A stretch of DNA of 63,771 bases, filler included, from Reclinomonas americana ATCC 50394 (GCA_048213135.1; 15 parts of 15 records of this genome joined end to end with filler, not necessarily neighbours in it); one strand, 5' to 3'. Numbered from the whole stretch's first letter, positions 3,361 through 60,832 are shown. Notes: generated by a model not told the origin, from the letters alone. Made by a program: numbers and translations.

Positions 3361-5220
3361 GAGAGNNNNNNNNNNNNNNNNNNNNNNNNNNNNNNNNNNN
3401 NNNNNNNNNTTAATTAATTAANNNNNNNNNNNNNNNNNNNNNNNNNNNNNNNNNNNNNNNNNNNNAGAGAGAGAGAGAGCAAGATAAGCATCTCGTGACA
3501 GCAACCCACCGAGCGTGGTGCGCAGCATGTGCAGCATGGCTCCACCACGGTTGTACGAAATGCTGTCGTACAGGTTGGAGATGTCGGCCAGCGTCTGCAG
3601 CAAAGGAGGCATGAGAAGAGAAAAGATAACTGGCAACAGAGGACTGAAAGACGAAACGTTCACATCCGACAGATGCACGCGGGTAGTCGGCGCAGAATTG
3701 TCGATCAGAGCCGGCATGATCTCGTCAGTGAGGAACGAAGCGTACACCTATTTAGGGAAAAAATGAGTGTGAATCAATAGCAGGAAAGGAGAGAATGGTG
3801 CGCAACGTTCTTGCCCGGAATGACACCCTCGGTGCCGACAAAGGCAAAGTACGTGGCGAAGCCCTGGAGAGAAGAGACGATAAGCCACAGGCTGTGAATA
3901 TGTGTGCGTGAAATTATTTCCTCACCTCCTTCAGCCACAGGTGCTGCCACCATTGCTGCGAGAGGGATGAAGAAGTGTGAGCGAAGAATGGCGACACTCG
4001 CTGAGGAGAGTTGCAACTTACCGGCGTGATGAGATCGCCGAACCACTGCGCCAGTCAACAAAGGAAGTGCGAGTGAGTGATGAGATAGCAGGAACGAGAG
4101 ACAGAGAGCGGGAGAGACAGAGAGCGGGAGCGAGAGAAAGAGAGCGGGAGCGAGAGAAAGAGAGCGGAGCGAGAGAAAGAGAGCGGGAGCGAGAGAAAGA
4201 GAGCGGGAGCGAGAGAAGACGAGCGGGAGCGAGAGACAGCGAGCGGGAGCGAGAGACAGCGAGCGGGAGCGAGAGACAGCGAGCGGGAGCGAGAGACAGC
4301 GAGCGGGAGCGAGAGACAGCGAGCGGGAGCGAGAGAAAGAGAGCGGGAGTGAGAGAAAGAGAGCGGGAGCGAGAGAAAGAGAGCGAGAGCGAGAGAAAGA
4401 GAGCGGGAGCGAGAGAAAGAGAGCGGGAGCAAAAGAAAGAGAGCGGGAGCAAAAGAAAGAGAGTGGGAGCGAAAGAAAAAGAGCGGGAGCGAAAGAGAGC
4501 GGGAGCGACAGAAAGAGAGCGAGAAGAAATAAGAAAAAAACAATCACTCGCATTACAGAATACCAGCTACGTGAAACGGGGTAACGCCTCAAGACTGTGA
4601 GCAAAGATAATCCCACACAGCGCAACATGCACTGCGTGCACACAGCGTCATGCCGCAGAGTACCAAACGTGTGGAGCATTTTAGAAACAACAACAACAAG
4701 ACTGTGAAGAATAACACACTTGGCCACTGTTCGCCCATCCACTCAGGTGCACTTTTCTTTCTTTTCCTCATTTCCGATTTGGCCGTCTGTTCGCCCCTAA
4801 GCGCAGGAGCGCCTTCTTTCTTTCCCTCCTCCCTCCCTCCCTTCTCCTTCCCCTTCCCCTATTTCTCACCTGGTGGGCAATCTCGTGACACACAACGTAC
4901 ACGACGTAATCCTTCTCGGCAATCGTCGCCGTGACATTGTTGGCAAGCAGCGCACGATCGCGGAATGTGAGCAGACCCCAGTTCTCCATGGCACCGGCCT
5001 CGAAACTGCGAGGAGAAAATTTAAAGAAGTAAATTTCCCTTCCCCTGAGGCGACAACACACGCAACTCGGGCAGCGCCACCAAATCCATCTTCGGCATCA
5101 TGGAGCTGTACGGCACACCGAGGAACCTGCCGAGGTTCTCGGTGCACTGGGGCGCCACGGAGAGCGCCAGAGCGGCGTCGTGCACCTTGCCGGGCACGGT
5201 CCACACGTTGTACGGGACGC
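1497..5220 (-). CDS. M1-family zinc aminopeptidase (aminopeptidase N/ERAP-like); multi-exon, 5' incomplete, crosses gap 3366-3465
   Basis: Spliced exons give [24 protein letters not shown]...[32 protein letters not shown], i.e. GAMEN plus HExxH(x18)E. Also present: [16 protein letters not shown] and an ERAP1_C-like end ([16 protein letters not shown]...IRANIIW). Stop at 1497-1499. Confidence 0.93.
2036..2460. repeat. GA-rich ~18-22-bp minisatellite (GCAGAGAGAGCGAGCGACAAAAG-like) in an aminopeptidase intron
   Basis: Visible tandem units with drifting sequence. Confidence 0.85.
3366..3465. other. Artificial scaffold gap spacer, first of 14 (3366, 5724, 6910, 10321, 14313, 17919, 20479, 23303, 28789, 37186, 48540, 56740, 60833, 62604; each 100 bp)
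   Basis: Identical N44-TTAATTAATTAA-N44 blocks carrying stops in all six frames. Several genes continue collinearly across them, so contig order appears real. Confidence 0.98.
4095..4525. repeat. 20-bp minisatellite (GAGCGGGAGCGAGAGAAAGA / ...GACAGC)n in an aminopeptidase intron
   Basis: About 20 tandem units. A related unit occurs at 13970-14312. Confidence 0.9.
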
Positions 5221-38087: not shown

Positions 38088-41000
38088 ATGCGACCGCATC
38101 GGGCGTTGCTTGTGACGCTGGTGAGCGTGGCGCTCGCGTGCAGTGTGCTTTTCGATGGAGGGTGGTGGCTTGTGCAGCGCGTCTCGGCGCAGGACAGCAC
38201 CACGTTTCAGGGTGTGACCATGTACAGGTGTGTGTGTTCTGATTCTTTTCCTTGCCACGGATGATGATGATGACGAATGACGATGTGTCCGGTAACGCAG
38301 AGTGGAACCCGACTTGTGGAAGAACGGCAGCGTCAGTGAGGCCGGCTGGCAGTTCTGGTACTTTGATGTCACCGATACGTTTATCGATATCACGCTGACC
38401 ACCAGGTGAGTGTAATGAGTCTTTCCGCCTTCCCTCTCCCACTTGCACATCGGAAGGAAAACAAATGAGGCACGGTAGCCTACACAGTGGAAAGCAGAGT
38501 AACACGATATGCGGGGCGAGAAGATGAGGGAGAAGGCGGAGAAGCTCGCTTGTGGTTTCTCTGTTTTGTTGCCCACTCCCACACTTGCACATGGAGCACA
38601 TCGACCACAAGGAAGAGAAGAAGAAGCTCGGAACCCACCAGCATCCACTCCTCCTCTCTCGTTGCACTCTCTAGCAGCACAAGGAAAACAATAAATCCAA
38701 CAGAGTGGAACGCAGAGAATCACAAAGAGAAAAGGGAGAAAGAAGTATACTCTCTCTCTTGTTGCACGAAGCGCAAGGAAAGTAGAAGCTCAGAGCTCGC
38801 CGACTTCCACTTCTCTCTCTCCTTGCACTCTCTCGCACTTGCAACTGAGCACAAGGAAAATAAATGATAGCCTACAGTGTGCGGAGATAGAAGGAGAAAG
38901 AGAAGAAGAGGAAGCCGCTTACGGTGTCTCTCTTGCACGCTTTCGAACTTGTAACTCGGTTGCGCACGTCCACGGAGCTCAAGAAAAGAAGAAGCTCACA
39001 GCTCGCCAACTTACACTCCTCTCTTCTCCCTCTCTCGTGCACACTCTCCCTCTCTGTGATCCTTCCCTCCCTCCTCCTCCCTTTCGTTGATCTTCCCTTC
39101 TTCCTTTCCCAGGTGCAACGGCACCACCAACGCCGGCCTGTACGGCGACCCCGACATCTACATCATGGTCGACGCGTTCCCCGAGGTGGAGACCGTCGCG
39201 AATGTGATGCACCCGACGGCGTGCGTCAATCAGACCAAGTGTCGCTTCAAGTCACGCGCGTACGGCTGCGAGCAACTGATCGTGTTGAACGACGATCCGT
39301 ACCACGCCACCGGCCGTCACATTGTGGGCATGTATGGCCACACGGGCGCCAGTTTCGAGATCACGGTGGATTTGCGCGTCTCGGCTTTCATCTGCGTCGA
39401 CCCCAACAAGGGCATCCGTGACTACGATTGTTGTGTTGCTTCCTGGGGTTTTTCTTGGAGACGTCACGTGCATGCTATTGACGACGGCATGCAGGTAACT
39501 TGCTGCAGGACATGTACATCAACTGTCGCGGTGATCGATGGAAACGACACAATGGGTGGATGCAAGTTGGCAGGGTATGAGCACGAAGACTCTCTCTCGC
39601 TCTCTACTTCGAGGTCACTGAGAGAGCGTGCGCAGAAACCATGCCAGTGGGAGGGCGTCACGTGCAACAAGACTGGCTTTGTCACTCACTTGTTGCGTCA
39701 TGGCTAGTCCGTTTCCCTCACGTCACTTCACCTCACTCGTGCCTCCGACGACGCAGAGACCTGCCGGACAACAACATTGACTGCCGGTTACCCAACGCTC
39801 TGCGCGACATGAATGGCCTAATTCGACTGTTTCGTTCATCCCACCCACGCTTGACACACAGTACCTCACCGAGGCGTCATGTATCTCACGCAGCAACTTG
39901 CGCGACAACCTCTTTTACGGTGACGTGCCGTACCAATTATACGAGTTTTGCAACCACATGTTGCGTTCACTGACCTTCTCCTCCGCATCTCCCTCTCTCT
40001 ATTTGCTTCTCACTTTTCCAGCTCGCACAGTGACCTCTCCAACAACCTCCTGTCGGGCGAGTTGACGGCGGGAGTGAAACCAGCCGTGAATCTCACGCAT
40101 TTGTTGCGTGCGCTCACCTCACCAAACATCGCTCGCGGCTGCCACTCACACTCGATCACGAACGCAGAGCTCTGGGTGGCAACTCTTTCACCTCCTCCAT
40201 CAAGATGGTCGGCTCCACGCCTACGTCCTACATCAAGCCCATCTTCTTTCAGCAGATCGGAATACAACTGGAGTACCTGTGCGTCGGTGGCAGAGGTGAG
40301 CTCCAGTTTTCTCTCACAACTCACCGCGCGCACAACTGCAGAGACTTGGGTCGCAATCGACTGAGCGGACCTCTGCCACCAGCCTTGCAGAACATCACCA
40401 CACTGCAGTACTTGTTGCGTGCATCTCGCGCGTTGTCGCCCTCACCTAACATGACTCACTCGTTTGAGCGCAGAGATTTGAGTTGGAATCAGTTTGTCGA
40501 CACCGTGCCCGTGTGGTTGTACACCAAACTACCGGACCTCCTCGTGCTGTTGCGTGAAGGCGTGAGTGCTGCTGGTCTTGCACATGCATTCTTACTGGCG
40601 AGTGGCACAGAAAACTGCAACGCAATCGACTCACTGGCAAGATACCGGGCTTGCTGTTTCGCATCCCCCTGCTGACGCACATGTTGAGTGCATGTCTCTC
40701 CACTTGAGCAGTAGAGAGGGATCTCTGTATGTGCTGATCAATGTGTCCGCACAGAGACTTGTCGGAGAACAGTTTTTCCGGTCTCATCAACGACTACCCC
40801 GGATCGCAGACGATTGAGTATCTGTGCGCGTGTGAACCGCTGTCGCCCTTTCTCATCTCACCGCACTGCTACTCACCACACCACCTATCACAGAAAACTC
40901 GGCGGCAATCCGCTCATCACCGGCGACATTCCAGTGCAGATCTACAACTCGCTGTCCCTCAAATTCGTGTTGCGTACATGCTTCGCTCAGTCCGCTTCCT

Positions 41001-44000
41001 CCATCTTCACTTCTTCATTCAATGTGTGGTCGGGTCATACGCCAGCAACGTGTCGCGTACTGGTCTTTCCAGTTACTTCAGTGTGCAATGGTCGCGATTG
41101 CAAAAGCTGGAGGTGTTGTCTCTCGAACAAATCAAGTTGATCGAAAGTCCGCTAGGTGGCACTCACCCGGCCACAACACTGCCGAGCGCCATTGGTCAAA
41201 TGGCCGCATTGCAGTATCTGTTGCGCAGCATGGGAGGTGGCGAGTCGTGCCGTTGCCCTCCCCTCTCACCACACTTTTTGTCACAGCAATGTCAGCAATA
41301 CCGGACTGACTGGTGTGCTGCCTTCGTCCATGAGCTCGTTGACAAAAATGCGGGCACTGTTGCGTCGTGCTGAATTCGTCATGGCACTCTTGTGGTAAAG
41401 GAGGGTACTCATTTTCGAGTGGTGGTGCCATGCAGTGACGTGTCCCTCAACTCCTTCACCGGCGGTTTGCCGGCCATGAGCACGTGGACACAACTGACGT
41501 ACTTGTTGCGCATGAACATGAACATGCTGTTACAGCAATGCACACATGCGCATGCACTCACTCTGTACATCTACAGAGATGCACGCTTCAATCAGCTCAC
41601 AGTGGCACCAGCGCCAGCATTTTGGGCGCTGCCGGCACTGATCTACGTGTTGCGTGCTGCCGAGGAGATTAGAACACCTCACTCGTCTCTCACAGCACTC
41701 TGCACGCAGTGACTTGGATGCCAACTTTATAAGTGGCACGCTGCCATCTACTCTTGGGCGAATCGAGTACATGTTGCGTGCCGCCACTGCAGCAGCCAGT
41801 TTCCTCTCTGTCTCCCATCTCATATTGTTTTTTATTGTTGCAGATCATTGCGGTATAACAAGTTCACCGGCACCCTGCCCACAACATACAACATCAATTC
41901 CGTTCATATGTTGCGTTGTTGGCACCGCATTCCGACAGAGAGTGTTGTGTTGACGTTGAGGGTGTTCGCAGAAACTTCGAGCGCAATCTCTTCAGTGGAT
42001 CAATGCCCGCAGCCCTCGGGCAGCTCAGACTCCTTCGCTTCTTGTTTCGTTTCCTTGATGCGCGTGTGGAGGGTTGGGGAGAAGAGCCTAATTGTGTTGC
42101 ATCGCTTATCACCAGGAGTGTGGCCTACAATCGCCTCACTGGCGTCGTGCCCGACTTGAGCAATCTCAATGCGGCTATGTACATGTTGAGTTGGTGTCTC
42201 CTCTCCATCACTCGGTCGCCCTTTCCACCCTCACCCTTCTCTGTCGCAGCGACGTGTCGCACAACGACCTTGTCGGTGCAATCACATGGGAGCGCGACAA
42301 GACATTCCAGCATCCGAGCTTGCGCATTTTGTTGCGTCCTGCAGCACTCACTGTAGAGTGCCAATCATTCACTGATTTGCCTCACTTCTCGCGGTGGCAC
42401 AGCCGCGCCGTGGGCAACATGTTGACGAGTGCACTGCCGTCGTTTGCAACAAGTCCAGATCTGCGTGAACTGTTGCGTTTTGTGTGGTTGTCGCTCCATC
42501 GTTGTGACTTCTCACTCTCCTCTCTTCACACAGTGCCATCACTCGCAATCGGTTCACTGGAGGTTTCCCTGTCGAAGTGTTGTCGTTCAAAAGTGTTGCC
42601 AATCTGTTGCGTTGCACTCACACACGCACAAACTCGCGCATCATCAACTCACCACTGCCACTGAGCAGATATCTCGAGGCCAATGCACTGAGTGGCGGAC
42701 TGCCAACGTTTCCATTACGAACCGTTCTCAGCATCCAGTACCTGTGAGTGGACTGGCTTCTGTGGCGGCGCTTGACGCCATCGTGATACTAACATGTTGC
42801 GCCCACAGAGGACTGGGCAAGAACCGCTTCAGTGGATCCCTGCCAACCACCATTCGACGCCTGCTTGGACTGAAAACATTGTTGAGTGCTCCCACTCACT
42901 CATCCACTGTTCAAGACTCAACATTCAATGTGTCACTGATACACACTCGCAGAACACTGCACGAGAACCAGTTGTCGGGCACGATGCCATCGTTGTCAGC
43001 ACTCGATCAGCTGCAAACTCTGTGCGCAGTGCTCCAGCCTCCTCATTGACCCCACCCTGCCTCATCTGTTTTTCCAATGCAGACTCATTCACGACAATCA
43101 GTTCTCCGGTTCCATTACCTCTGCTGCGCTGCCGGTGTCATGCACTATGATGTTTCGTCGGTGACGAATCGAGCCCCCCTTTCTTGCACCGGACCAACTT
43201 TCTAGATTTGTATATGCACAGTGTGGCTTGCAGCAACTCTTTCTCCGGCAACTTTCCCAGTTTGGCCAATGTCCCGTTCATTCGTCACCTGTTGCGTGCG
43301 AGCAGAGAGAGTGAATGCGCTCACAACCGTCTCCTTACTCACTCCCCTCGACACAGCGATGTCAGCGACAACTCCTTCGCCGGCGACCTGCCGGACATGT
43401 CACCAGTCGGCAGCTCACTGCAGTTTTTCCTGTTGAAGAACAATAGAATCACCTCGTTTGTGCAGGCCGGACGTGCCGGCAGCTTGGTGGAACTGTTGCG
43501 TGCACTCACGCGCGAGAGTGATTGTCATTCTGCGACTAACACGTGAATGTGTGCACAGTGACATGCGCAACAATCCTGTGGCCTCCATCACGCAGCTCGA
43601 GTCGGCTGTGGGCCTCACTTACATGTTGCGCTTCTCTCTCCTCTCCCCATCCAACCACGCTGCCACTCACCCACGATACACAGCGATCTGGTCGGCCTGC
43701 GTGACACATCCTTTTCACCAGTGCTGTCGCAGTTCCGCAAGCTGGAGCACTTGTTGCGTGCTCTCGATGCGTGCTCAGTGTAGACGACGCACTTACTTAC
43801 AGTCTGTCCTCAGTGACATTGGAGGCACACGGTTGCGAGGTGCCATGTTTCCCATTGACGTGTCGTCGGGCCTCGAGTATCTCGACGTCAGCGGCCTCTC
43901 GCTCACTGGCAACTTCAAACCGTGGCAGAATCTCACGTCTTTGATCGAGCTGTTGCGTGATTCTCTGTCCCTCTGCTGTACATTGCTTGCAACTCACATG

Positions 44001-47000
44001 CTAGTGACCAGGCACATGCAAAGCTCGTCCATGGATGGTGCAATCAACCCAGCAGTAAAGATGTTTACTCGCCTGCGCTACTGGTGAGTACTGCTTTGCG
44101 AGCACACACGATGGTGTTCCTTGCCGACACACACACCACCTCTGCACACAGGAACCCGTCGTCGACGCAACTGAGCGGTTCATTTCCTTCGGAAATCAGT
44201 TCACTCCGGTCACTGCGTGTGCTGTTGCGTTGCGAGTCAGGAGCACAGCTCCGGTCTCTCGTAGTACTCATTGTTTGGAGACAATTCACCCCTGCAGACT
44301 GTTGAACAACATGCCAAAGATGAATACTGGACTGCCGGCAGCCTTTCAAAGCCTGACGAGCTTGGCGCACTTGTTTCGTTTTCGCAAGCATCTTCCCTTG
44401 TACCCTGGTACGCACTGACTTTCATACAGAGTAATGTCGAAGATCAGGGTCACTGGTGGCATCACCAACATTGTGTCTCCTTCGCTTGTGGAATTGTTGC
44501 GCCACTGTGATGTCGCTCGCCCTCATCCCTTCATTCATTCATACATATTCATGTTGCACCTGGCAGCTCTGCTCCTGGTCTCGGGTTCACGGGTCAACTG
44601 CCAGCCGTCGCCGCCCCCAAGATGCTGTATCTGTGCGTCAGCAAGCTTGGTGGGAGGATTGTTGTCGCCAGCCACTCACTCTTCTCTCATGCACACAGTG
44701 ATTTGCAAAACAACGCCTTGACAGGCGAGTTCCCGCAATACAGCAATCTGCGCGGAGCATTGTACATGTTGCGCCACGGATGGCCCTCTGTCTCTTGCTT
44801 CTTGTTGGACACTCACAAGTGCGAGCAGAAATGTGGCCGGCAACAAACTCGATTTGCTCTCCGGCTCGACCAAGAAAACCAAATCGGCGACTGCGCCGTC
44901 GGACGGCAGCATCCTCAGCGATCATGGTGGCGGTGAATCGGATCCGCGGTTCGAAGCGCGCTCAGCTTCGTTTGGAACAGCAGAGCGCGCCCGTGGTTTG
45001 CGACATGCGGTATCCAGTCGAGCCTTCAGCTCTGCTTTCGATCAAGTCGTCTATCTGTTGCGCACCGTTCACTATTCTCTCTCTCTCCAAACGAGGCCTC
45101 TCACGCTTCACACTCTGTAGCAACACCGCCCGCAATCCAATCGAAGGCGAGTTGCCAACCGACTTGGCAGTCCTGCGTCGCCTCCGTTGGTGGTGAGCAT
45201 GCACGTGAATATTGCACTGCCACCGTATCGTCATTGAGCCACTGATATTGTGTCGCTCCAATCAGGGACTGTCGCAATAACTCGATGCGTGGCAGTGTTC
45301 CGAAGTCCATCGGTTCCATTGTTCCGCTGTGGTACCTGTGCGTTACCGTCTGTTGTTGTCGCGTTCTTGTCGGGCAACTCACCGCATCGGAGGCAGTGAT
45401 CTCTCCGACAATGATTTCACCGGTCTCATTCCGAACGAGATTGGCCAACTGAAGCAGCTGACGTATCTGTTGCGTGCTGCTGCTGTGCCACAGCCGACAT
45501 GTTGCATTTGACTCACGCATGGTGGGTGGTGTGCCAGAAATCTGTCACGCAATCGTTTCGAGGACGACGTGCCTGCGTTCTTCGCCGATGTCAGCTACAC
45601 AGTCGATGTGACTGGCAACGACTTTGACTGCCCCGTGAACTCTTACAATTCAACCAATCCGACCATTTCCTGCAGTTGCGTGCCGTTGTAGAGTGGAGAG
45701 ACTCAGTAGATGCATCACACGAAAGCGATGCACTTGCAGGCTGCCCTGCCGGATACATCATTGTCAAGTACACATCGCCGTGTCTCGGCTGTCCCAAGGG
45801 CACTGTTGCCGAAAGTCTCACCGCCACCACATGCACCAAGTGCCCCAAGGGCTACTACCAACCCAACACACTGTCGACGTTGCGTCAATGTGTTGCTCTC
45901 TGCTTGCTTGCAATAATCGCTCACTTGTACCCGTTTAGGAAATGCCGCAAGTGCCCGCCCGGTCACTACCAGGACGAGATTGGCATGCCGAGCTGCAAGC
46001 TGTGCCCGCCTGGCTACAACATGAGCACCCCAGCGGCGCCCATCTGCCTGGCATGCGCTGCTGGCCTGTACGCACAGTACTTTGGCACGGTCAACTGCGA
46101 TCCGTGCCCGCCCGGATTCCGATCCAATGTTTCGTGTCACGAGTGTGCGCGTTTCTCCGCGCTTGTTCCCCCCTCAAGAGAAGTGAGAGATGCAGGGCAC
46201 GGCCAAGTTCTGCAATGAGTGTCCGCGTGATTCATACTCGGAGATATATGGCGCCCGTGTGTGCACCAGCTGTCCGCAGAATACTGGATCGGAACAGGCC
46301 GCCGGTATCTCTCGCTCGTTGTGCCAGTGCAATTTTGGTGAGACGCTTGATGATCGCCATCGTTCCCTGCAGTATTCTCATAGCTTGCGTGTATCCTATC
46401 TGCAGGCTACATGGGTCCCGCCGGCGGTCCCTGCGAGCGCTGGTGGATTGTGGCACTCGTGTACATTATCGTTTTGTTGCTTTTTGTTTATCTGCTGGCC
46501 CACCTGATCTCGGCTGGATTCGCGGCACGGGCGCGGCTGTATGTGAAAAAGGTCTGCACTGCAGTCGATCATGTGATTGCTGCTTTTGTTTCACTCACCA
46601 CCCAACACACGCACGCACATGCAGGACGAGCTGGATTATGTGCACAGTTGAGTAGTTCTTTTTACACACAAAGAGAGAGAGAGAGAGAGAGCCACGTGAA
46701 TCTCACTCGATCGACATGCACAGCTTCCCTGGGAACAGCGGTGCCACCAGGACAGCGCTCGGCTCGCTCACACGTGTCGGCCAGATCCGCAGACAAGCGC
46801 AGTGAGCTCACCTTCGAGGAGGAAGTGGCGTTTGATGACGTGCCTGAGGCACCGGCCCTGCGCGACGTCGACGCCAGTGTGCAGCTTCGTCTGACTGGTG
46901 ACGAGGATCAGTATCAAGTACGCGAGCTGCTGCTGAATGCACGACTGCAGGCACAGATCGGTGAGTGCATGTCTGTGGCACACTGCTGCAAACGCGCACT

Positions 47001-48019
47001 GTTGTTCATTTACAGCTGTGTTGCTCGAGTGCAGCTGCTCGTCGTCATGCCGCAGAAGTGGCATTGCTGTCACACACAGAAAACGCGGCGGAGACTGCCG
47101 AGTTGGAGAGACGAACAAAAGCCCGTCTCATCTCCCAGAACTGGAAGGTGTGCGCACTCCCCGTTTCTGTCGCGCCCTTACTCTCTCACTCACCCTTTCC
47201 AACCCATCACGCGCACAGCGTATTGTGGAAGTCACGCACCCCGAAATGCTCATGGAGGAGGCGGAGGATGAGCATGGCATGCGCACCGACCGCAATCCTC
47301 ATACCTCCATGCGCGACGGCTCGTTCACCAATCGCTCTAGCTTCCCAACCTCTCGTCCCGGTACGGCGGCAGCACCACTTACCGCCACCGACATCGGCAC
47401 CTTCCGCAACGCCGAGCCACCAACAGAGCGATACGGTGCCGATCTGCTGCCGGAGTCACCGTCGTCGCCCGACACGGCGAGATCGCCCTCGGCCCGCCAG
47501 CCACTGCTGTCGCCGCCATCCGTGACGACGACCACAACCACCACGACCGTGCCTCCCCCACCGCCAGTATCTGCCATGCAGCCGTCACAGCGGCGGCCTC
47601 CGAGTCGGGAGCCGGCTGCCGGTGGCAAGGTCGCTCGCAAATTCACTCGGCAGCCGGCCAAACCGACGCCTCCTGCACCACAACCACCGCCCAGACCAGC
47701 CGCACCGCCTCCGCCTCCTGCGCCGCACGCAGCACGACCAACGGCATCGTCGCTCCAACGTACGGCCTCGGTCGCCAGCTCGTCCGACCTGCAGCTGTCA
47801 CGACAACCGTCGGGACGCGCCACCACGCCGTCCACGCAGGCGCGTCGTCCGTCCGTGTCTGCCACTGGCGCACGGCAGGGAGCCGCGGAGCAGGAGGCCG
47901 CGAAACGGCGGCCAGCCACCACGGCTGCCGCCGGGTTCGATTTGAACGATGACGACGACGATGGGGAGGAAGAGGAGGACGACGGCGACGAGGAACCGCC
48001 ACCAGAGCACGGTTTGTAA
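38088..48019 (+). CDS. Giant LRR receptor-like protein 1: signal, PPC-like domain, LRRNT, ~40-45 plant-type LRRs with island, Cys-rich repeats, TM, kinase-less cytoplasmic tail; ~52 introns
   Basis: Exon-by-exon manual splicing gives one continuous frame: GDPDIYI (PPC-like), GDRW..NGW...PCQWEGVTC (LRRNT), repeated LxLxxNxLSGxLP units, CxxCPxGxYQ repeats, TM WWIVALVYIIVLLLFVYLLAHLI, and a Pro/Ser-rich tail. TAA at 48017-48019. Confidence 0.9.
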
Positions 48020-48256
48020 CTGCACCACTTGTGTGTTATTCATGTCTGCTTCTCTCTTTCTCTCATTCGTCCTCCGTGCGACAGTGACATTGGCGTTTGT
48101 GAAACGACGCGATGACCGTGGCGACGATGGTGGTGGCGTTGGTCTTTAATTAAAAAAAAAACACCTCGATATCAGCAGTGATGAAGATGATGGACGACTG
48201 CGACACACACTTCGCGCCACAACAACGAAAGAGGCACACAACGCACAAGCCACGCA

Positions 48257-51200
48257 ATGCGGCCGCTGGCGGTTTACACAGCGCAATGTAGACCGCCGCG
48301 ACGTCGACATCGACATCGCACACTGTTTCTCATTCTGCTCTCCGTGGCCCTTTTCACCTGCGTACTCTTCGATGGAGGAGGAGAGCACTCGTGGCTGCAG
48401 TGGCGCCCGCAAGTGCGCGGAGTGGCCGCCGAGGAGTCCACGGTGGTCGGCGGAGTGACCATGTATCGGTTTGTGTGTGTGTGTGTGCATGTGAGATGAG
48501 TTGATGAGAATGTGTCCGGAGGCTGGTGTGACACTCTCGNNNNNNNNNNNNNNNNNNNNNNNNNNNNNNNNNNNNNNNNNNNNTTAATTAATTAANNNNN
48601 NNNNNNNNNNNNNNNNNNNNNNNNNNNNNNNNNNNNNNNTCCCTCTCTCCCTCTCCCTCTCTTTCTCTCTCCCTCTCTCCCTCTCCCGCTGTCGTCGCTT
48701 ACGCTTGCTTGCTGGCGGGTACGCTCGCGCAGAACCCGTGCAGTTGGTATGGCATCACGTGCAACAAGACCGGATTCGTGACAAGCATGTTGCGTTGTCG
48801 CTGCTCCGATCACCGCGTGTCTCAAGTCTCTCACGGGTTCCGCGCACAGCAACATGCCAGACAATAATATCAATTGCCGCCTGCCCAACGCACTCCGCGA
48901 TATGAATGGCCTCATCACTCTGTTGCGTGATTCCAATCACCCGTACGGCAGTTTGCCGCCATCGCACCGCCTTACTTGTGCTGCCGCGGCAGGAATTTGC
49001 GCGGAAACAACTTCTTTGGCGAGGTTCCATACCAACTCTACGAGTTTTGCAGCTACATGTTTCGTGCGATGGTCGACGATCTCCGTCTGCGATGTGTCGT
49101 CGCACCTGACTCTCTCTCTCTCCGTGCAGTGACTTGGCGAACAATCAGCTGACGGGCGAGCTGAAGGCGGGTCCCAAGCCGTCCGCCAACTTGACGCACC
49201 TGTTGCGTGTGCTGCGTGCCGAAGACGCCAGCGTATGTGCCTTATTCTGTTCCTTGTCGCGCGCAGAGCACTTGGCGGCAACTCTTTTACCTCCTCCACG
49301 AAGACTGTTGGCTCCACGGTCACCAACTTTGTCTCTCCGACATTCTTTTCGCAGATCGGCTCGCAACTCACCTACCTGTTGCGTCTTCTGACAGTATCTT
49401 CGGTGTGAGTGAGTTACATGCGTGTTACTCACTCATCTTCTCGCGCAGCGATCTTGGACGGAATCGACTGAGTGGCCCCCTTCCTCCGGCTATCCAGAAC
49501 ATCACCACCCTCGAATATCTGTTGCGCCTCGCTCTCTTGTTCTGCCTCCTCTTTGTCACTGACTCTTCTCTGTGTGAGATAGTGACCTGAGTTGGAATCG
49601 GTTTGTCGATACAATTCCATCGTGGCTGTACACCAAATTGCCGTTATTGCAAGTCATGTTGCGTTTTGCACCGCATTCCATCCCCCTTTTCCATAGCGCC
49701 TTACTCGTTTGCGTGTTCGCAAGCGCAGCAAGTTGCAGAACAATCAACTTTTTGGTTCAATGCCCCAGCAAATCTTTCAGCTTGTCGACCTCTTGCACAT
49801 GTTCCGTCGTCGCCGCGACACGAATGTCGGGAGCAATGTCGTTTCTGTACTCATGGTCCTGTTCGTTCTGCTTGCGCAGCGATTTGTCGGAAAACAGGTT
49901 TTCAGGAATCATTAATTACCGTGCCCAGGCAGTTTCAAAACTGCAGTACCTGTTGCGACCCTGGCCGTGAACTCTGTTTGTCGTCTTTGTTCCTTCTTGT
50001 TCACAGCTTCTCTGCTCAGAAAACTTGGCGGCAATCCACTCGTCACTGGCGACATTCCGGGGTCGGTGTACGATTCACTCAACCTCAAGTTTCTGTGCGT
50101 ACACTAATTTTGTTACACGCCCTGTTTCCCTTTTTCCAATCTCTCTCACTGTGCACTTGCTCGCAGGAATCTATCGCGCACTGGCCTGTCCGGCTTTCTC
50201 AGTCCCGAGCTGAAGAAACTCACGCTACTCGAGGTTCTGTCGCTTGAGCAAATCCAGCTCACCCAGACGCCGTTGCCGAACACGCACCTTGCCGGCACCA
50301 TCCCGACAGAGATTGGGCTAGCGGCCTCTCTCCAGTACTTGTTGCGAAAGACACCGCTATGTGCTTGAGGTCGAGACTCTTCTCGTCTCTCACTCTCCTC
50401 GTTTTTGCCATCATTCTGCAGGAATATTAGCAGCACTGGCATGTCGGGCACGCTACCATCGTCCATGTCGTCGCTCACCAAGATGAGGGCAATGTGAGTA
50501 TTGTTGGCAGAGAACAGTCACGATGTGAAGCGCCGTTCACCTCTGCTCTCCCTTCCAGGGATGTGTCGCTGAACTCATTCACTGGTGCCTTCCCGGACAT
50601 GAGCAATTGGAGATTGCTGACCTATTTGTTGCGTCTCTGCTGCACGTCAGGCTGTGCGCAGACAATGTCGCTCACTTCGCACGAGAGCAGAGATTGTCGA
50701 CAAAATCGCTTCACTGCACCACCAGTAGCCGCGTTTTTCGCCCTTCCCAGTCTGATTTATGTGTTGCGTCGGCGTTCTCCTTTCTACTGACTGTGCATAC
50801 CCTCTGCCTTTGTCTCACACTGTCGCACGTGCCACTGTTGTAGCGACATGGACAACAATTTCATGGCTGGTAGTCTGCCCTCGTCGCTAGGAACAATCCA
50901 ATACTTGTTGCGTACTTTTTCTGCACCCACATACTTTTGCCACACGTCCCACTTGTCCTCTCGTCACAGCTCGATTCGCGGCAACCGGTTCACCGGGTCA
51001 CTGCCGACGGCCTACAACAATAGCGTGTTTCATTTGTTGCGTTCTTCGCATGCTACAGTGTGCCAGCGTTGTCGACGGTGCCGACGCTCACAGTGTCGTG
51101 CGGTGCAGAAATTTCGAGAGGAACTTGCTGTCGGGCACAATGCCGACGCAGCTCGGGCAGCTGACGCTCCTGAAATTCCTGTTGCGTCAGAGCCTGCGTG

Positions 51201-54200
51201 AGAGTGGGTGAGGGGATTTGCTTCTGACGGAAATCTCTGTGTGCAGGAGCGTCGGCTACAATCGACTGACAGGCTCTGTTCCCGATTTCAGTGACTTGGC
51301 CCAACTGTACTATCTGTTGCGTTCATGCTGGCTGGCGCTGCGTTTGCTTGATGGCGGAGACGTGACGTTCGTACGTGTAGTGACTTGTCTTTCAACGATT
51401 TCACCGGCACCGTGACGTGGGAGCGCGACAAGAACTTGTCGAAGCATCCGAATTTGCGCATCTTGTTGCGTCGCCTTTGTTGTTGCCATGGGCGGTGACT
51501 CTGCACGAGGAGGTTGCCATGGTTCTCATTATCGTTGTTCTGCAGTCGAGCGGTCGGCAACATGCTGTCGGGCCAATTGCCACAGTTTGCATCGAGTCCA
51601 GACTTGCGTGAGCTGTTTCGTCTCTCTCTCTCTCTTTGCATGCCTGCATGCGTGTTTTCACTGCGCTTTACATTTGACGACGCGAGTCGCAGTGTGGTGA
51701 CGCGCAATCGATTCAATGGTACCTTTCCTATTGAGGCGGGCGCTGCGAGGAGTCTGCGTGAATTGTTGCGTTGTGTTGTGGGTTTGCGAGAGTCTTCTGT
51801 TTGTTGCTACAGCTGACTGGGCGCTCAATCGCAGGCGCCTCGAGTCCAACGTGCTGAGCGGCACTCTGCCGGTGTTCACCAGTGACAAATTCATTCGTCT
51901 GCAATATTTGTGCGTGTCGCGTCCCGCGTAACTTGTGATATACTGCTTGTCCTGACGCACCGACACACCGACACACAGTGGTCTCGGCAAGAACAAATTC
52001 TCCGGCAGTGTGCCCACCAGCATCCGTGAACTCGACACAGTGATCCAAATGTTGCGCGCGCATTCGCGCAGCTCTGCATACTTCTTCATGCGCAGCGCTC
52101 ACTCTCTCTGTCCATCGAACAGGACTCTGCATGAGAATTCATTTACGGGCAGTATTCCGTCGCTTGGTGCTTTAGACTTTTTGGAAACCATGTGCGTGCA
52201 CCACTCCGTGCACGAGATGTGTATCGCGACTGCTCACTCGCATCGCCGATGCTTGTAGCCTTCTGCATGCCAACCAGTTCACAGGCACTCTCACACCACT
52301 GGTCTCTCTCACCTCTTGCCAGACAATGTGCGGCTGAGTTTGTTTTGCGTGTCGGTGTAATCGACTAATCGCTTCTTACCGTGTTTCTTCATTGTGTGTA
52401 GTGCACTGGCCAGCAACTCCTTGTCGGGCACAATGCCATCGTTTGTTGGCTTGCCGGCACTCAAGTATCTGTTGCGTTGTTGTCACGGTGGAGCTGTGTC
52501 AGTTCTTTGTTCATCAATCTGAACATCTCGTGTACCATCAGCGATCTTTCCGACAACTCGCTGGCGGGAGTGATTCCCGACATGCAGCCGGCGGTGCAGT
52601 TGCGCTTTCTGCTGCTGAAGAACAACAAGTTCACCACATTCCTGCAAGCCGGTCGTGCCACCAGTATGGTGGAACTGTTGCGCATTGAGCCTACTGTGAG
52701 TACTCGCGCGACGAAGGCACCGTTGCTGACTGTGAGACGCAGTGACATGCGCAACAATCCTCTGACCTCCATCACATTGTTGGAGGGTGCCACTGGCCTC
52801 ACGTACATGTTGCGTCGTGGGAGGGAGGAGAAGTGGGAGCGCGAACCAATCACCATCATGTTCTCCTTCCACACTCACGTACACACGCTCTCACGCTCCC
52901 GTCTTTCTCTGCTACTCCCTCGCCTCACACACCCTCATCTGCTGATGTTCACCGGTGTTTCGTGCGTGTGCACAGCGATCTGGTCGGCCTGCGCGACACC
53001 ACATACTCGCCAATCCTCTCCGGTTTCAAAGGGCTGGAGCACTTGTTGCGTGCTCTGCTTCTGTCTGCGTCGCCGCACCGTTCGCCTCGTTGCGCGCTAA
53101 CACCCCTTTTTCTTTTCTCTTGATTCGCAGTGATATCAGTGGCACGAAACTGCGCGGCAGCATGTTCCCCATCGAATTCTTGAATTCGCTCGAGTACCTG
53201 GATGTGAGTGGTCTCTCACTCACTGGCAACTTCAAACCGTGGCAGAATTTGACGTCACTGCTGGAGTTGTTGCGTGCGACTTTCGTGTCCATCCTGCTGG
53301 TGGGAGCCATTGATTGTTGACGTTGTTCGCTTGTGCATCATCTCCAGGCACATGCAAAGCTCCAGTATGGACGGAGCCATTGATCCGACAGTCAATCAGT
53401 TCACACGCTTGCGTTATTGGTGCGACACAACCCGGGATGTCCCTGCAATCCGCAGCTGCACTTACCACACAATTATTGACGCAGGAATCCGTCATCCACA
53501 TCACTCAGCGGCTCGCTCCCAGCAGGCATCAGCTCGCTTCGCAATCTCCGCGTATTGTTGCGTCTCGTTTACTCCTTTGTATCGTTTCAGCTTGCTCACC
53601 CTCGCACAGACTCTTGTCAAGCATGCCCAAGATGAACACTGCGCTCCCGGTTGCCTTCCAAAGTCTCTCCAGCTTATCGCACCTGTGCGTCTGCGACCGG
53701 TCGGCATGCCATTTTTATGTCTTCTCATCCATGTGCTTCTCCCCCACATGGCAGAGTGCTGTCCAAGATCAAATTAACGGGCGGCATTCTCAATGTAGTC
53801 TCGCCTGCACTCTTGGAGTTGTTGCGTTTTGGTGCCACTGTGTTTGCAACGACCGAGATAATAATGCAAGACTGAGCGCATTCGCACCGCAGGTCAGCGC
53901 CAAGTCTCGGGCTCACAGGACAGCTGCCTGCCGTCTCGGCACCCAAGATGTTGTATCTGTGCGTCTCTCCCGTCTGCACTTGCGTCGAGCACAACTGACA
54001 CTCATCGACGCAGAGATCTACACAACAATACGTTTACTGGCGAGTTCCCGCACTACGCAAACCTTCGTGGAGCGCTGTACATGTTGCGTACGGGTGGGGG
54101 TATGTGTGCACGCTCGTTCTGTGCGCTCATGCACACAACCCCAGAAACGTGGCCAACAATCGATTGAATCTGCTGACGGGATCGACGGCAAATGGGAAAA

Positions 54201-56739
54201 AATCGGCGAGCACAGTGGATGAATCACCGTCGCTATCGCTGGCCTCGGTCGGTGAACGGCCTCGGTTCTCGCTGCGAGCCGTGGACTCGCTGCTTGATCA
54301 AGTGGTGTATCTGTTGCGTGCATGGTGCTGGAACTGAAAGAGTGAGTGTGTGCCGAGTATTGACTGGGTATCGCGAATTGCGTGGCGTGTAGCAACACCG
54401 CCGGTAATCCGATTGAAGGGCTGTTGCCGACGGACCTCAGTTTCTTCCGTCGTCTCAGTTGGTGGTGCGTGGACCGGCAGTGTTTGCTGATGATGTGGTT
54501 GGTACTCACTGATCTTTTAACCGGTGCAGGGACGCCCGAAACAATTCGCTTCGAGGATCCCTGCCAAAGACCATTGGAAAAGTCAGCCGCCTGTGGTACC
54601 TGTGCGTCATGCTGAATCTGTGATATATGTAGGCCTCGGTAGCTGACAACGTTCACAGTGACTTGTCCGACAACGACTTCACGGGCCTCATTCCCAACGA
54701 ATTGGGCGACTTGACGCAGATGACGTACTTGTTGCGTGCAGCGAGGATCGCAAGAGAGTGCGCAATGAGCACCGTGGCATCTCATCTATTTCTCTCTCTG
54801 CCAGGAACTTGTCGGGCAATCTCTTCAAAACCAACGTGCCGTCGTTCTTTGCCAAAGTGAATTACACGGTCGATGTCAGTGGCAACGACTTTAGCTGCCC
54901 GATTTCCTCATACAACTCCACCAACCCGACCATCTCCTGCAGTTGTGTACGGAGGGGACGCACTAAGTTTTTACTGTCGCATGTGTACTCAAACAGTGTG
55001 TGCACTTCGTGCAGCGTGTCCGGCTGGCTACATTGTCGTCAAATTCACTTCACCGTGCCTCGGCTGCTCGCCAGGCACAATCGCTGCTACGCTGTCGGCC
55101 AAAGTGTGTACCAAGTGCGCCAAGGGCGAGTATCAACCGAAGAAGCTGGCCACGTTGCGTTTCCTTTTTCACAACGACGTGTGCGTGTTTTTTTGGTGAA
55201 TTCACCCTTAGCTTCTTCTCCGCCAACGCGCAGCAAATGCTTGAAGTGCCCTCCCGGTCAGTACCAGGATACGCTCGGCCAGTCGTCGTGCAAGCTGTGC
55301 CCTCCTGGGCTAAACATGACCAGCAGTGGCGCGCCCGTGTGCCTCCCATGTGCCAGTGGCCTGTACTCGCAGTACTACGGTGCTGTGTACTGTTCTTCGT
55401 GCCCGCCCGGCTTCATTTCGGGTGTACGAGCGCACTACTGCAACGAGTGCCCGCGCAACACGTACACGGAAGTGTACGGAGGCCGCGAGTGTCAGCACTG
55501 TCCCGAGTTCACCAGCTCAGAGCAGTCGGCCAGTTCCTCACGTTCTCTGTGCCAGTGTGATTTCGGTGCGCCGTTCTTTTGTCTTTTTCTTTGTCTGCTC
55601 ACCTCCTCCTGTCGCTAACTTTTACGGCGCGCAGGGTATATGGGACCGCCTGGGGGGCCTTGCGAGCGATGGTGGATTGCCGCCTTAGTGTTCATTGTTT
55701 TTGTGCTCGGCATTGTGTACATTGTGTCGGACGTGGCATCCAACGCCCTGTCCAAGCGGGTGCGCGCCCGGGCAAAGAAGGACGAGTTGGACCACGTGCA
55801 AGGTGGGGGCGTTGTCGACCTTTGCCTCGCACTGCTTTCAGCTAGTTAATCTCACTTTCCCTCGACCTCTCACGATCCGCAGTCGGCATGGGTACGGCAC
55901 CAGGACCGACCGGACCTCGCAGTGCTCGGTCACACGTGTCGGCACGCGAAACCGATCGCCAGAGCGAGCTCACCTACAACGAGGAGGTGGCCTTTGATGA
56001 CTTGCCCGAAGGGCAGGCCGCTCTTGGACTGCGCGGATTCGGTGACGGAGAGCAACTGCGACTCACTGGCGAGGAGGAGCAGTCGGATGTGCGAGAGCTG
56101 CTCCTCAATGTGCGCCGGCAGGCACAGATCGGTGAGTCACGTGTCGTTGCTGCGCGTGACGCGGGCGGTTCTTATATAAGGTGTATGTGCAGCTGCTCGG
56201 CGGCACGTGGCCGAGATTGCACTCAGTGCCCATGTCGACGGCGCGGAGACGGAGGAGCTGGAGCGCCGCACGCGTGCCCGTATCATTTCGCAGAACTGGA
56301 AGGTCTTTCTGTTTCTCCCCGTGCACGTGCCTTGCGCGTCGTGAACTCACTCGAAGCGATTCGTACGTGCGACTCGCAGCGCATTGTGGAAGTGACGCAC
56401 CCAGAAATGCTGATGGAAGAGGCGGAGGATTCACGAGGCATGCCCACAAGCCGCAATCCCTTCTCAGCCATGCAAGACGGTTCGTTCACCAACCGCTCCG
56501 GCTTCCCCACGACAAGACCAAACACCGCCGCTGCTGGCGCCTCCTCCGCCACCACCGCCGCCACCCCGCCCAGCGGGCTGGGACCGACTACCGCTGCTGG
56601 CGGCTCCATTTCTTCGGTGGTGGTTCGGACAACAGTACCTGGTCACGGCGGCCTCGGTGTCGGCGGCAGCTCCGCCACCTCGGCCAGTAACTCGGCTCTC
56701 GCCTCCCCGCACATGCAGACGCCGTCGCCAATCGACAGT
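48257..56739 (+). CDS. Giant LRR receptor-like protein 2, tandem paralog; exons 2-4 fall in gap 48540-48639 and the 3' end in gap 56740
   Basis: Collinear exon for exon with copy 1 (e.g. NMPDNNINCRLPNALRDMNGL, TWERDK, GNFKPWQNLTSL, CERWWIAALVFIVFV, RIVEVTHPEMLMEEAED). The first exon ends in the same GVTMYR. Confidence 0.9.
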
Positions 56740-57021: not shown

Positions 57022-60000
57022 CCATCCTTGCCAAACGTGACCGCCTTGGACATCGGCAACGCAGTGACCAGCACACGCCGACCCACTGCTGCACTCTCGT
57101 CGATCTCCAGCGTAAAACCATTAGCCTCGAAAATCTCGCGATTCTCCATCATGATCAACTCCTCTGCTGCGGTGAGCTCCATGCGCAGCGGCCTAGTATC
57201 AGCAGTGTCAACACGAAAGGTGCGAATGACATTGACAATAGAGAGAGTTGCACGAAACGAAATGAGCCGCTGCGTGTTGATAATCGTGGAGCGCTGGAGT
57301 GTTTCGAAGCGGTACATCTCGTCGGTGGCATGCTGGTCCACGATAAAGAGGTCCTTGTGCAGACGAGCGACAATGAAGCCGAGGTTGAACTGGCCGACAA
57401 CGTGCATACGTCTGTAAAAGAGAAAGAAAAATGGGGCGAGTGAGTGCCAGAGGACGATTGACACGCAATAACTCTTGATGATCTTGGTCTCTTTGCCCCC
57501 TGTTCATCTCTCTGCCACATCCGAGTCCCACTGCACCTAAAATCATCTTTGGAGATGGTTCGTCGCAGCTCCTCCTCGCAGGCATCATTCGAATCCACCG
57601 CCAACTTGTGGCTGAAGAACGGCGCTGTTGCGGTTCCCGCTGACGACGAAGGCATGGCATTCCGTGCTCCCGGTCGCGGAAACGCGGGTCGCACTTGATC
57701 CAACTCGCCCGTGTGCAAGCCGGAACGTCGGAGTTCGGCAAGATCCAGCTTGACGCGCAGTGCACCTGTTGGTGGTGCGCAAACTACAGCAGACAGTGAG
57801 ACGGGAGAGCACGAAAAATTAGAAACACGCAACACCAGGACGCAACACTCTTCATCTGCCGCAGACGGCATCTCCACAAGCTCGTGATAGCTGGTGGCGC
57901 GAACTGGAGCAATGATGAGCGTTCAGGCTTCACTCGCTCACTTTCAAATACAACTGACCACTCACCTTTCTCTTCCTCGTGGACAGCATCGCCCCCTGAA
58001 TGACCACAACAGCCGCCGCCGCCGCCGCCGCCTGCGTGGTGGTGCGGACGCGAGGGTGATGACATGTCGCCGGCCGACTGCACGAAAAAAAGCAGCCTCG
58101 TGAGAGACTGCGAGGAGCGAACGGAGCAGCGCACAACACACCGACGGCTCATCTGTCATCTCCGCCTCGTCGTCATCACCGTCGTCCACGGCCATTCCTT
58201 CCTCTTCGTCAGGCTCCGCCGCCCGACTGCTGGGTTCAGCAGGCAACGCCGCTGACGACAAGGCATCGTCGCCGTCATTTTGTTTCTGCGCAGACACGTA
58301 CGTGAGTCACCCCGATTTACAACGTGCACACACAGACAAACACACACATACGCAGACCTGTGCCACGCGACGAAAAAAGTCGGGTATCTGAACAGTGCCA
58401 GTCGCGGGCGGGTCCTTTCGTTTGCGTGGCGCCGGTGGAGGAGAACTTAGGTTCTGTGATGGCCATCGTAAACGAGAAAAGTGTTGAGCGACTGTCGCAC
58501 ACAGAGCTGAGAGCGGTGCTGTGCGTACGCAACACCAAGCGCCGGCGGTGATGTCAAGGTCGATGCGGTTACGGGAGAGCGATCCGCAGCGAAACTCAGC
58601 AAATTCCTGCATGTCAGCACGCCAGTACGTCACTTTCCACACCGGCAGCAGTGCACACATCCAGTGAAAAGAGAACGCAACTGCACGCGCAGTACGGGCG
58701 CGACTGATGGTCGCTCCTTGCTCGGCGTGATACTGCGAGACGATGAAGGAGAAGGAGGGGGAGGGGAAAGGGGAGAGGAGGAGGAAAAGAGAAGGAGGGG
58801 GAGGGGGAGGGGGAGGGAGGAGGAGTAGGAGAGACGGTGAAAATCAAACAAATGAAGAAGAAACCCAAAAAGACGAAGAGAAACAAGGGAGAAAGAAGCG
58901 GACAAGAAAAAGAAGAGATAAGCATGAGCACCTCAGATTAAGCAGACGACCGCGAAACGGTGCGACGCAACAACGACATGTCAACATCCGCAATCGGCTT
59001 GTGAGTCGATTTCTTCTCTTCAGATGACAGTTCTCCTCGCTCCACTCTCTCGTCCTGGCGCTGCTCCACAGCTTTTTCCCTCACAGGCGGCTCTCCCTCG
59101 TCCTCATCCTCATCTTCGTCCTCGTCGGTGCTGTCTGAATCGGCGACCGACTGCGAGGCCGACGACTGCGACTGCGAGCGCTGCAACGACGACTGCTGCG
59201 ACGAGAGGAACTCGTGCATGGAGGCCTGTACGGCGAACGACTGCTGCGATGGCTGCAGCAGCTTGGCGAGGTGTTCCTGTTCATGAAAAGTAATGCGGTT
59301 CAGACGGCAAGGTGGGAGAGAGGCATCGACAAGCAACCAGTCTGCACCTTTAGCAGGTCAACCAGCTGCGCTTCGTCTTGCAGCAGAACTTGACGCTTGT
59401 CGGGCGTCAAGTTGACATCAAAGGTGGCTACAAAAGTGGGAATGAGGAGAGCGAGAACGCTGGAGCAGACAGTGTCACGTGCAAATGCATACCTGGCGCC
59501 GCCTGGATACCAATGACAAACACCGGCGGTCTCTTCTCACTCAGTGCGCGGTACGACTCGCGAATCGCTTTGGTGATTCGCGGCATCTCCACAGGCCCTG
59601 TGCGAAACAAGAGTGAGTTAACTGACGGATTGCGCGTGCGGGGGGTGAAAGGGACAGCACGAAACGTCCATTCAGGAACAGATATTGACGCTCTGTCGAG
59701 GTCTTGCTGTCGGCGGATGACGTGAGGTCCGACACGAATCCACTCACGCTGCGGAAGAGAGAAGGGGGGACAGGTGGCAAAAGCCAGTGGGTGGATAATG
59801 TCAAGTAATGCACACACAACGAGACAGGCGAGAGAGAGAAGAATCAATTGAATGTCAGTGCGATAAAGAGGAGATGAGAGGAGGATTGGAACACAGCAAG
59901 AAAGAGAGTGAAGGGCACCACCGAACACACCTCCAATGCGCCGCGGAGAAATCCACCGGCAGCAACGACTGCACATGCTTGCGTCCAAACACCTCACAAA

Positions 60001-60561: not shown

Positions 60562-60832
60562 GAGGAGGAGGAGGAGGAGGAGGAAGGAGGAGGAGGAGGA
60601 GGGAGGAGGAGGAGGAGGAGGAGGAGGAGGAGGAGGAGGAGGAGGAGGAGGAGGAGGAGGAGGAGGAGGAGGAGGAGGAGGAGGAGGAGGAGGAGGAGGA
60701 GGAGGAGGAGGAGGAGGAGGAGGAGGAGGAGGAGGAGGAGGAGGAGGAGGAGGAGGAGGAGGAGGAGGAGGAGGAGGAGGAGGAGGAGGAGGAGGAGGAG
60801 GAGGAGGAGGAGAGGAGGAGGAGGAGGAGGAG
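60562..60832. repeat. (GGA)n trinucleotide microsatellite in a PMS2 intron
   Basis: About 270 bp of nearly pure repeat running into a gap. Confidence 0.95.

Follow-up and report, generated by a model that had tools for sequence, protein, structure and literature searches.

Few features of spliceosomal introns are as constant as the G at intron position +5 and its pairing with C4 of the U1 small nuclear RNA (snRNA) and with the ACAGAGA box of U6, and the locus described here raises the question of whether this G can lie one base deeper in a large share of the introns of a genome and how such donors might then be read. The locus consists of two tandem leucine-rich repeat (LRR) receptor-like genes of Reclinomonas americana ATCC 50394, located in a stretch of 63,771 nucleotides (nt) of DNA (GCA_048213135.1; the whole stretch is referred to below as the window). 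An earlier note on this DNA had proposed that donors such as GTTGCGT represent a main splicing code of the lineage. These donors correspond to the ordinary GTGCGT or GTGAGT with one extra T inserted after the GT, by which the following G and T are shifted to +6 and +7. We defined them as the T3/+6G class (T at +3, G at +6, no G at +5) and found that they make up most of the donors of the two LRR genes, occur in unrelated genes of the window and are almost never preceded by an exonic G, a combination that probably reflects recognition of the 5' splice site with a one-nucleotide offset.

The window is eukaryotic in character, with a G+C content of 51-62%. Both LRR genes (positions are collected in Table 1) encode large receptor-like proteins with a plant-like cap (CxWxG[VI]TC) and about 40 plant-type LRRs of 24 residues, beyond which follow cysteine-rich Ephrin_rec_like repeats, a transmembrane segment and a conserved tail (...RIVEVTHPEMLMEEAED...); a kinase domain was not detected in either protein. 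Gene 1 possesses an N-terminal domain ahead of its CxWxGVxC cap. This domain of 105 residues (P0001, 39114-39428, + strand) had no relative among proteins of 185-2000 amino acids in a large protein collection, and the open reading frame that encloses it (39060-39704) matched no Pfam family. The two genes are paralogues, with 64.5% amino acid identity across paired LRR exons. Their introns are about 55-85 nt long, have a pyrimidine-rich 3' part and end in a CAG acceptor, while those of the LRR region (~65 nt), one behind each LRR exon, all share phase 2 and their place within the repeat, and each of them is preceded by T, the second base of a hydrophobic codon. The LRR acceptors have the form cag/ plus one base plus xLxxNxL (n = 73, after four of 77 listed acceptors, 39708, 43312, 46280 and 47016, had been dropped by eye as non-LRR), by which phase 2 and the exon starts are fixed without looking at the donors. 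Their consensus (39757-54805, + strand), CGCAG/ or CACAG/, is unusually specific: position -3 is C in 66 of 73, position -4 is G in 42 and position -5 is C in 40. CTCAC-like motifs, seen by eye and uncounted, lie upstream of these acceptors and, being the reverse complement of GTGAG, inflate antisense counts of that motif.

At the 67 junctions where one intron lies between adjacent LRR acceptors, each in-frame GT or GC donor was enumerated and the choice was made by a rule blind to the donor sequence, based on hydrophobic residues at LRR positions -5, -8 and -11, with ties settled by GT before GC and then by intron length. The rule picked a T3/+6G donor at 44 junctions, a +5G donor at 11, a GC donor at 9 and another sequence at 3, although the rule is crude and plainly went wrong in several of its GC and other picks; with a two-class donor matrix added, the T3/+6G class was found at 49 of the 67. 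Whole-gene models constructed from acceptor and donor matrices contained T3/+6G donors in 34 of 51 introns of gene 1 and 31 of 43 of gene 2, thus in 65 of 94 altogether, against 23 donors of the +5G class. These models err in places, since real-looking donors at 39692, 45057 and 52677 were missed and a spurious 42-nt intron was introduced at 53204, and the tail of gene 2 (55385 to 56592) comes solely from a first rough parse. All 94 modelled introns are GT...AG, with both ends built in because no other introns are allowed by the models, and the spliced coding sequence of 8202 nt runs without a stop codon. The model counts agree roughly with the ~37 of 52 and ~32 of ~47 T3/+6G donors reported for the two genes in the earlier note, and the coordinates given there are exact (GTTGCGT at 39692-39698, GTTTCGT at 39829-39835, CAG ends at 39756 and 39893, and an exon at 39757-39828 of 72 nt). 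Among GT sites that are not donors between 39430 and 55160, 36 of 1014 (~4%) fall into the T3/+6G class. GTTGCGT itself occurs 62 times in the window compared with 11.5 ± 3.4 in 100 dinucleotide shuffles, none of which reached 62; 46 of these copies are on the + strand, and 41 of the latter are located at 40-55 kb. At positions outside the selection criteria, too, the 65 donors are largely uniform, with G at +4 in 57, C at +5 in 60 and T at +7 in 56.

Since the two LRR genes are paralogous and all their LRR introns have the T of a hydrophobic codon before them, these counts are not independent. An equal-prior two-class parse, admittedly rough, assigned 10 T3/+6G, 16 +5G and 8 other donors to the 34 introns of the other genes of the window. 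The 'main splicing code' of the earlier note is therefore borne out for the LRR genes (65 of 94) and not for the remainder of the window (10 of 34); a majority of T3/+6G donors is probably not a property of the genome, whereas 'a major class' is a fair description for this one window. In the M1 aminopeptidase, residues 263-308 of the solved chain 4wz9_A match the exon upstream of the donor at 5066 and residues 310-354 the exon downstream, leaving one residue for the split codon, and in the PMS1-like gene the exons flanking the intron at 57193-57258 match residues 39-92 and 94-142 of yeast Pms1 (4e4w_B), with one residue left in the same way. Spliced at these donors (GTTGCGT in the aminopeptidase, GTTTCGT in the PMS1-like gene), both genes align with the solved homologues without gaps. 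Weaker support comes from a further PMS1-like intron (59598-59665): the exon downstream matches positions 50-83 of Pfam DNA_mis_repair from its first residue, and over the 6 nt that follow no GT other than that of the donor (59665) has the phase needed. For the aminopeptidase junctions at 3806 and 3657, a PDB search of the read-through gave 0 matches and Pfam matched the downstream exon alone; these two were placed by open frames and M1 motifs. The six consecutive donors of the aminopeptidase core read cga/GTTGCGT, cag/GTGAGA, ccg/GTAAGT, gag/GTGAGG, aac/GTTGCGC and aac/GTTTCGT. Judging by these junctions, the T3/+6G class extends beyond the LRR genes to unrelated ones, and the existence of GT donors with an extra T and with G and T at +6 and +7, as claimed in the earlier note, is well supported both here and by the paralogue comparison described below. 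The aminopeptidase also contains a 30-nt micro-exon in the zinc-site region (3926-3955, - strand; donor gag/GTGAGG), which was found via an M1 motif and skipped by all automatic parses, and no relative of its C-terminal exon was confirmed among metagenome contigs.

The donor class depends on the last base of the exon. In the LRR genes, T3/+6G donors were found in none of 8 positions after G at -1 and in 65 of 80 after another base (Fisher 7.6e-6, junctions taken as independent); the eight donors after G, which include W codons (TG/G) and three sites outside the LRR junctions, all belong to the +5G class. The same holds for the other genes, with 1 of 14 after G and 9 of 20 after non-G (p 0.024), as well as for the aminopeptidase core, where the GTT-type donors follow a, c and c and the ordinary ones g, g and g. 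The T3/+6G form is thus almost never used after an exonic G, and the LRR genes, all of whose LRR introns follow the T of a hydrophobic codon, are pushed towards this class.

Comparison of the two paralogues provided 31 junction pairs, of which 21 have T3/+6G donors in both genes, 6 have +5G donors in both and 4 are class switches. In three of the four switches the exon length is equal, so that cleavage in both classes is predicted, with good support, to take place at the same boundary, and the introns can be regarded as genuine GT-AG introns cleaved where ordinary donors are. The class is conserved in 27 of 31 pairs against 0.61 expected from class frequencies (binomial p 0.0026), though a part of this persistence is to be expected because only a 1-nt insertion or deletion interconverts the classes. 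The intron interiors, by contrast, have lost all resemblance: their similarity is 0.54 in orthologous and 0.54 in random pairs, and an all-against-all comparison of 93 interiors (blastn-short) gave nine directional matches of 12-13 nt (E 0.002-0.009), which correspond to six distinct intron pairs, three of them seen both ways, and are at chance level. Recent duplication, gene conversion or an introner family would fit poorly with these values, and introner elements were rejected as a source of the introns, there being no similarity along the introns compared. As the 7-mer has been kept while the interiors were randomised, it appears to be under constraint rather than recently copied.

Several explanations compete with an offset reading, one being that the boundaries are misplaced. 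The earlier note held that reading frame and LRR period fix the exon ends; this stands for acceptors and phase, but not for donors, as GTT comprises three bases and GTT/GCGT is consequently always in frame. GC-AG introns starting 3 nt downstream, with exons one codon longer, are therefore available at every GTTGCGT site, yet at the 41 junctions allowing both readings the GC donor fits the LRR pattern worse in 32, equally in 6 and better in 3. The intron-free LRR joints of both genes have the same LxxLxLxxN spacing, as read from exon translations. Moreover, the same or orthologous positions also carry the variants GTTTCGT, GTTGAGT, GTTCCGT and GTTGTGT, for which this reading would require TC, GA, CC or GT donors, one residue would be inserted relative to yeast Pms1 and the solved M1 aminopeptidase, and paralogous exons would come to differ in length in three of the four pairs that switch class (the remaining pair has 23 versus 24 codons already). 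We thus rejected GC-AG introns as a general solution and regard misplacement as very improbable. For the bulk of sites, the same evidence also excludes a GT 5 nt downstream combined with an AG 2 nt downstream. U12-type introns were also rejected, as no modelled donor resembles RTATCCTT and an Rfam search of the window, U11, U12, U4atac and U6atac included, gave 0 matches. An over-called T after GT, arising in sequencing or assembly, is hardly conceivable, and nothing was found that speaks for it: the 8202 nt of modelled exons stay in frame through 359 TT dinucleotides, the T is present in both paralogues at 21 of 31 orthologous junctions and in neither at 6, and its presence correlates with the -1 base. 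A more substantial objection is that no special reading exists at all, that is, that these short introns are defined mainly by GT, length and 3' signals while the extra T is a neutral relic of an ancestral LRR unit spread by duplication. This would suit the common position and phase of all LRR introns, the paralogy of the genes, whose paired junctions agree in class in 27 of 31 cases, and the lower share of the class elsewhere (10 of 34 versus 65 of 94). It does not readily account for a 7-mer retained beside randomised interiors, for the class at homology-checked junctions in at least three unrelated genes, for avoidance of G at -1 inside as well as outside the LRR genes, or for the strand bias of the motif set in the aminopeptidase, CFAP54-like and PMS1-like genes (29 sense versus 4 antisense by manual count), and we consider it improbable.

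The explanation that we favour, and hold to be reasonably probable though far from secure, is that the extra-U donors are recognised with a one-nucleotide shift, while their dominance in the LRR genes stems from phase and duplication. The 5' splice site would be read with U+2 or U+3 bulged out or, alternatively, with the whole helix shifted and G+1 standing in for the absent exonic G-1, so that GUUGCGU might be the functional equivalent of G/GUGCGU for exons unable to end in G. In the LRR genes, the T of a hydrophobic codon precedes every LRR intron, all of them in phase 2, and the exon-plus-intron unit, later the whole gene, would have been multiplied by old duplications, after which the class could be changed by 1-nt insertions or deletions only. 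The standard U1 5' end is ACUUACCUG. When paired by hand to this standard sequence, GUUGCGU forms the same pairs as GUGCGU, via either a bulge or a helix shift, and the helix-shift version fits the avoidance of G at -1 because GUUGCGU and G/GUGCGU differ at one base. Several points weigh against this explanation. The bulged GUUGCGU pairs no more strongly than GUGCGU, so simple thermodynamics fails to explain a preference for it after non-G and points towards an altered snRNA. The junctions were placed by DNA sequence, protein homology and the internal logic of the repeats, the sample behind all counts is 64 kb of one genome, and the Fisher tests treat paralogous junctions as independent. The parse outside the LRR genes suffers from fragmented genes and from donor matrices mostly trained on LRR junctions, and an earlier donor-blind parse frequently picked other GTs a few bases off. 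Finally, a GC donor fits the LRR pattern better at 41910, 44768 and 54083 (+ strand), as in ...GALYML/DL with GC against ...GALYI/DL with GT. These sites, the last two of which are paralogous, could represent real GC-AG introns, pairs of tandem donors at a distance of 3 nt, or noise.

Could the machinery itself have changed? U1, a second U1 variant or U6 might have been remodelled, for instance to be complementary to GUUGCGU over seven bases, in which case GUU-GCGU would be the best-paired donor, while the ordinary GUGCGU would leave a base of the snRNA bulged out on pairing and depend on the exonic G for support. After non-G, the T3/+6G class is used as often as the ordinary one or more so (65 versus 15 in the LRR genes, 9 versus 11 for all other classes elsewhere), which a pure bulge penalty would not predict, and it follows a stricter consensus, since 60 of 65 have C at +5 whereas the corresponding C at +4 is found in 14 of the 23 ordinary donors; together these two features give genuine scope for a changed U1 or U6. 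Precedents are the U1 5' ends AACAAAC of Entamoeba, which matches its GUUUGU(U) donors, and ACGUAC of Mastigamoeba, whose donors are GUGCGC, as given in extracts of a preprint by Roy and Bowser (bioRxiv 10.1101/2022.06.08.495308). The same extracts, however, describe a standard U1 in two lineages with C at +4, Thecamonas and Mamiellales, so that odd donors need not mean an odd U1, and the two classes found side by side here contrast with Entamoeba, where one atypical donor is near-universal. All in all, an altered snRNA seems to us rather unlikely, though by no means negligible. Its full form would be a code of two 5' splice-site registers used side by side and chosen by the last exon base (G/GUGCGU versus N/GUUGCGU), possibly enabled by a U1 whose 5' end is extended by one base or made complementary to GUUGCGU in some other way, or by a second U1 or U6 variant. 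We put this forward tentatively and with more doubt than belief; if it is true, R. americana would be the first organism in which +6G donors, elsewhere rare exceptions, form a major class under selection.

Table 1. Genes, introns and junctions of the window; a slash separates the end of an exon from its donor.
Feature	Position	Strand	Detail
LRR receptor-like gene 1	39117..47551	+	51 introns in model, 34 with T3/+6G donors
LRR receptor-like gene 2	48709..56592	+	Splice-informed model to 55385: 43 introns, 31 with T3/+6G donors
Example intron, GTTGCGT...CAG, 65 nt	39692..39756	+	After ...FVTHL; orthologue is gene 2 intron 48789-48849
Example intron, GTTTCGT...CAG, 65 nt, phase 2	39829..39893	+	Sole in-frame option with LxxLxLxxN spacing
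Class switch between paralogues	40279..40341	+	Gene 1 cct/GTGCGTCGG; gene 2 cct/GTTGCGTCT at 49378; both exons 37 codons
LRR junction with exon ending in G (W codon TG/G)	44084..44151	+	Donor is ordinary GTGAGT
M1 aminopeptidase gene	about 1.4-5.6 kb	-	Pfam on long open frames
M1 aminopeptidase intron, 61 nt	5006..5066	-	Donor cga/GTTGCGTGT; split codon GA/T = D; alignment to chain 4wz9_A
Aminopeptidase intron, 59 nt, phase 0	3748..3806	-	Donor aac/GTTGCGCAC; open frames and M1 motifs; not residue-exact by homology
Aminopeptidase intron, 63 nt, phase 0	3595..3657	-	Donor aac/GTTTCGTCT; frame and motif; not residue-exact by homology
CFAP54-like gene	about 29.6-36.8 kb	-	Pfam on long open frames
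PMS1-like mismatch-repair gene	56.9-60.2 kb	-	Pfam on long open frames and homology
PMS1-like intron, 66 nt	57193..57258	-	Donor ttc/GTTTCGTGC; alignment to yeast Pms1 chain 4e4w_B
PMS1-like intron (N-terminal part), 68 nt	59598..59665	-	Donor gac/GTTTCGTGC; gives ...YLFLNG-R-PVEMPRIT...
Methyltransferase, M76 peptidase, UBC-like gene, Asp/Asn hydroxylase	in window		Pfam on long open frames
Ephrin_rec_like repeats of LRR genes 1 and 2		+	Pfam on long open frames
Intronless WD40 open frame, 409 codons	61164-62390	-	Neighbourhood otherwise intron-rich

The surroundings of the LRR genes show some further peculiarities. The best matches of the intronless WD40 frame are generic WD40-repeat proteins with at most 64% identity over ~70% of the query, several of them cyanobacterial by name, and it is possible that this frame represents a retrogene or a transferred gene. 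Pairs of 44-N blocks, 12 bases apart, occur at 14 places in 3366-62703 (e.g. 3366-3409 with 3422-3465, and 48540-48583 with 48596-48639), one pair sitting between gene 1 and gene 2; their appearance suggests masking rather than gaps in the assembly. Low-complexity DNA is abundant, several intergenic stretches included: GTGTGT occurs 96 times on the - strand at 20-25 kb, CT/GA-rich tracts are read as SLSLSL in many open frames, and a low-complexity stretch at 60603-60809 is a 69-codon run of a single repeated codon (Leu on the - strand).

If offset donors are indeed used by a large share of introns according to the last exon base, they would constitute a natural experiment bearing on the uncoupling of U1 binding, the hand-over to U6 and the choice of the cleaved bond. 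On the practical side, gene finders with a single donor matrix will misplace T3/+6G donors by 3 or 5 bases, as the donor-blind parses did here, the first of which often favoured GTTGC/GTGC..., a GT 5 nt downstream combined with an AG 2 nt downstream, and such errors would add or drop one residue per LRR in large receptor families.

As regards known systems, shifted and bulged (+2/+3) registers between 5' splice site and U1 were reportedly described in human by Roca and Krainer in 2009 and by Roca and colleagues in 2012. The donors considered here resemble them in that the G and U that would pair with C4 and A3 of U1 lie one position deeper, U stands at +3 and the predicted cleavage site is unchanged. 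They differ on the exon side, which here is without U1 complementarity and avoids G at -1, and above all in abundance: validated non-canonical registers make up ~1.5% of 201,541 human 5' splice sites according to an extract of Tan et al. (2016, PMC4856993), while the T3/+6G class comprises ~69% of donors in the two LRR genes and, outside them, roughly 30% of those in the window. Offset registers are not known beyond this small fraction of human sites, and within the window the class is some ten to a hundred times as frequent as the shifted-register donors of mammals. Two complementary classes of 5' splice sites, AG//GU and //GURAG, are said to have been distinguished by Parker and colleagues in eLife in 2022, and in both cases sites lacking exonic G would lean on the intronic part of the donor; those classes, however, differ in strength within one register, whereas the classes described here differ by a one-base offset. 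Among the papers listed in a literature search by motif and topic, Thecamonas trahens included, +6G donors were described neither as a majority nor as a major class, and the motif itself turned up solely in primers or unrelated sequences; this cannot show that no such description exists, especially in the organism's own genome paper. Among the atypical donors in the extracts of Roy and Bowser (bioRxiv 10.1101/2022.06.08.495308), the GUUUGU(U) found throughout Entamoeba (Archamoebae) also has U at +3, but it keeps G at +5 and is a single near-universal donor of an intron-poor genome, while G is located at +6 in the intron-rich genes analysed here; with two classes side by side and G at +6 instead of +5, the donors of R. 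americana are not of the Entamoeba type. The ordinary class (GTGCGT/GTGCGC) resembles the GUGCGC of Mastigamoeba as well as the donors of T. trahens and Mamiellales (GYGCGY), which prefer C at +4 (same preprint), and in the extracts on these lineages no extra-T, +6G class is reported. The T3/+6G class would thus work most like the shifted- and bulged-register donors of mammals, from which it appears to be set apart by its frequency, by its dependence on the -1 base and by an exon side without complementarity to U1.

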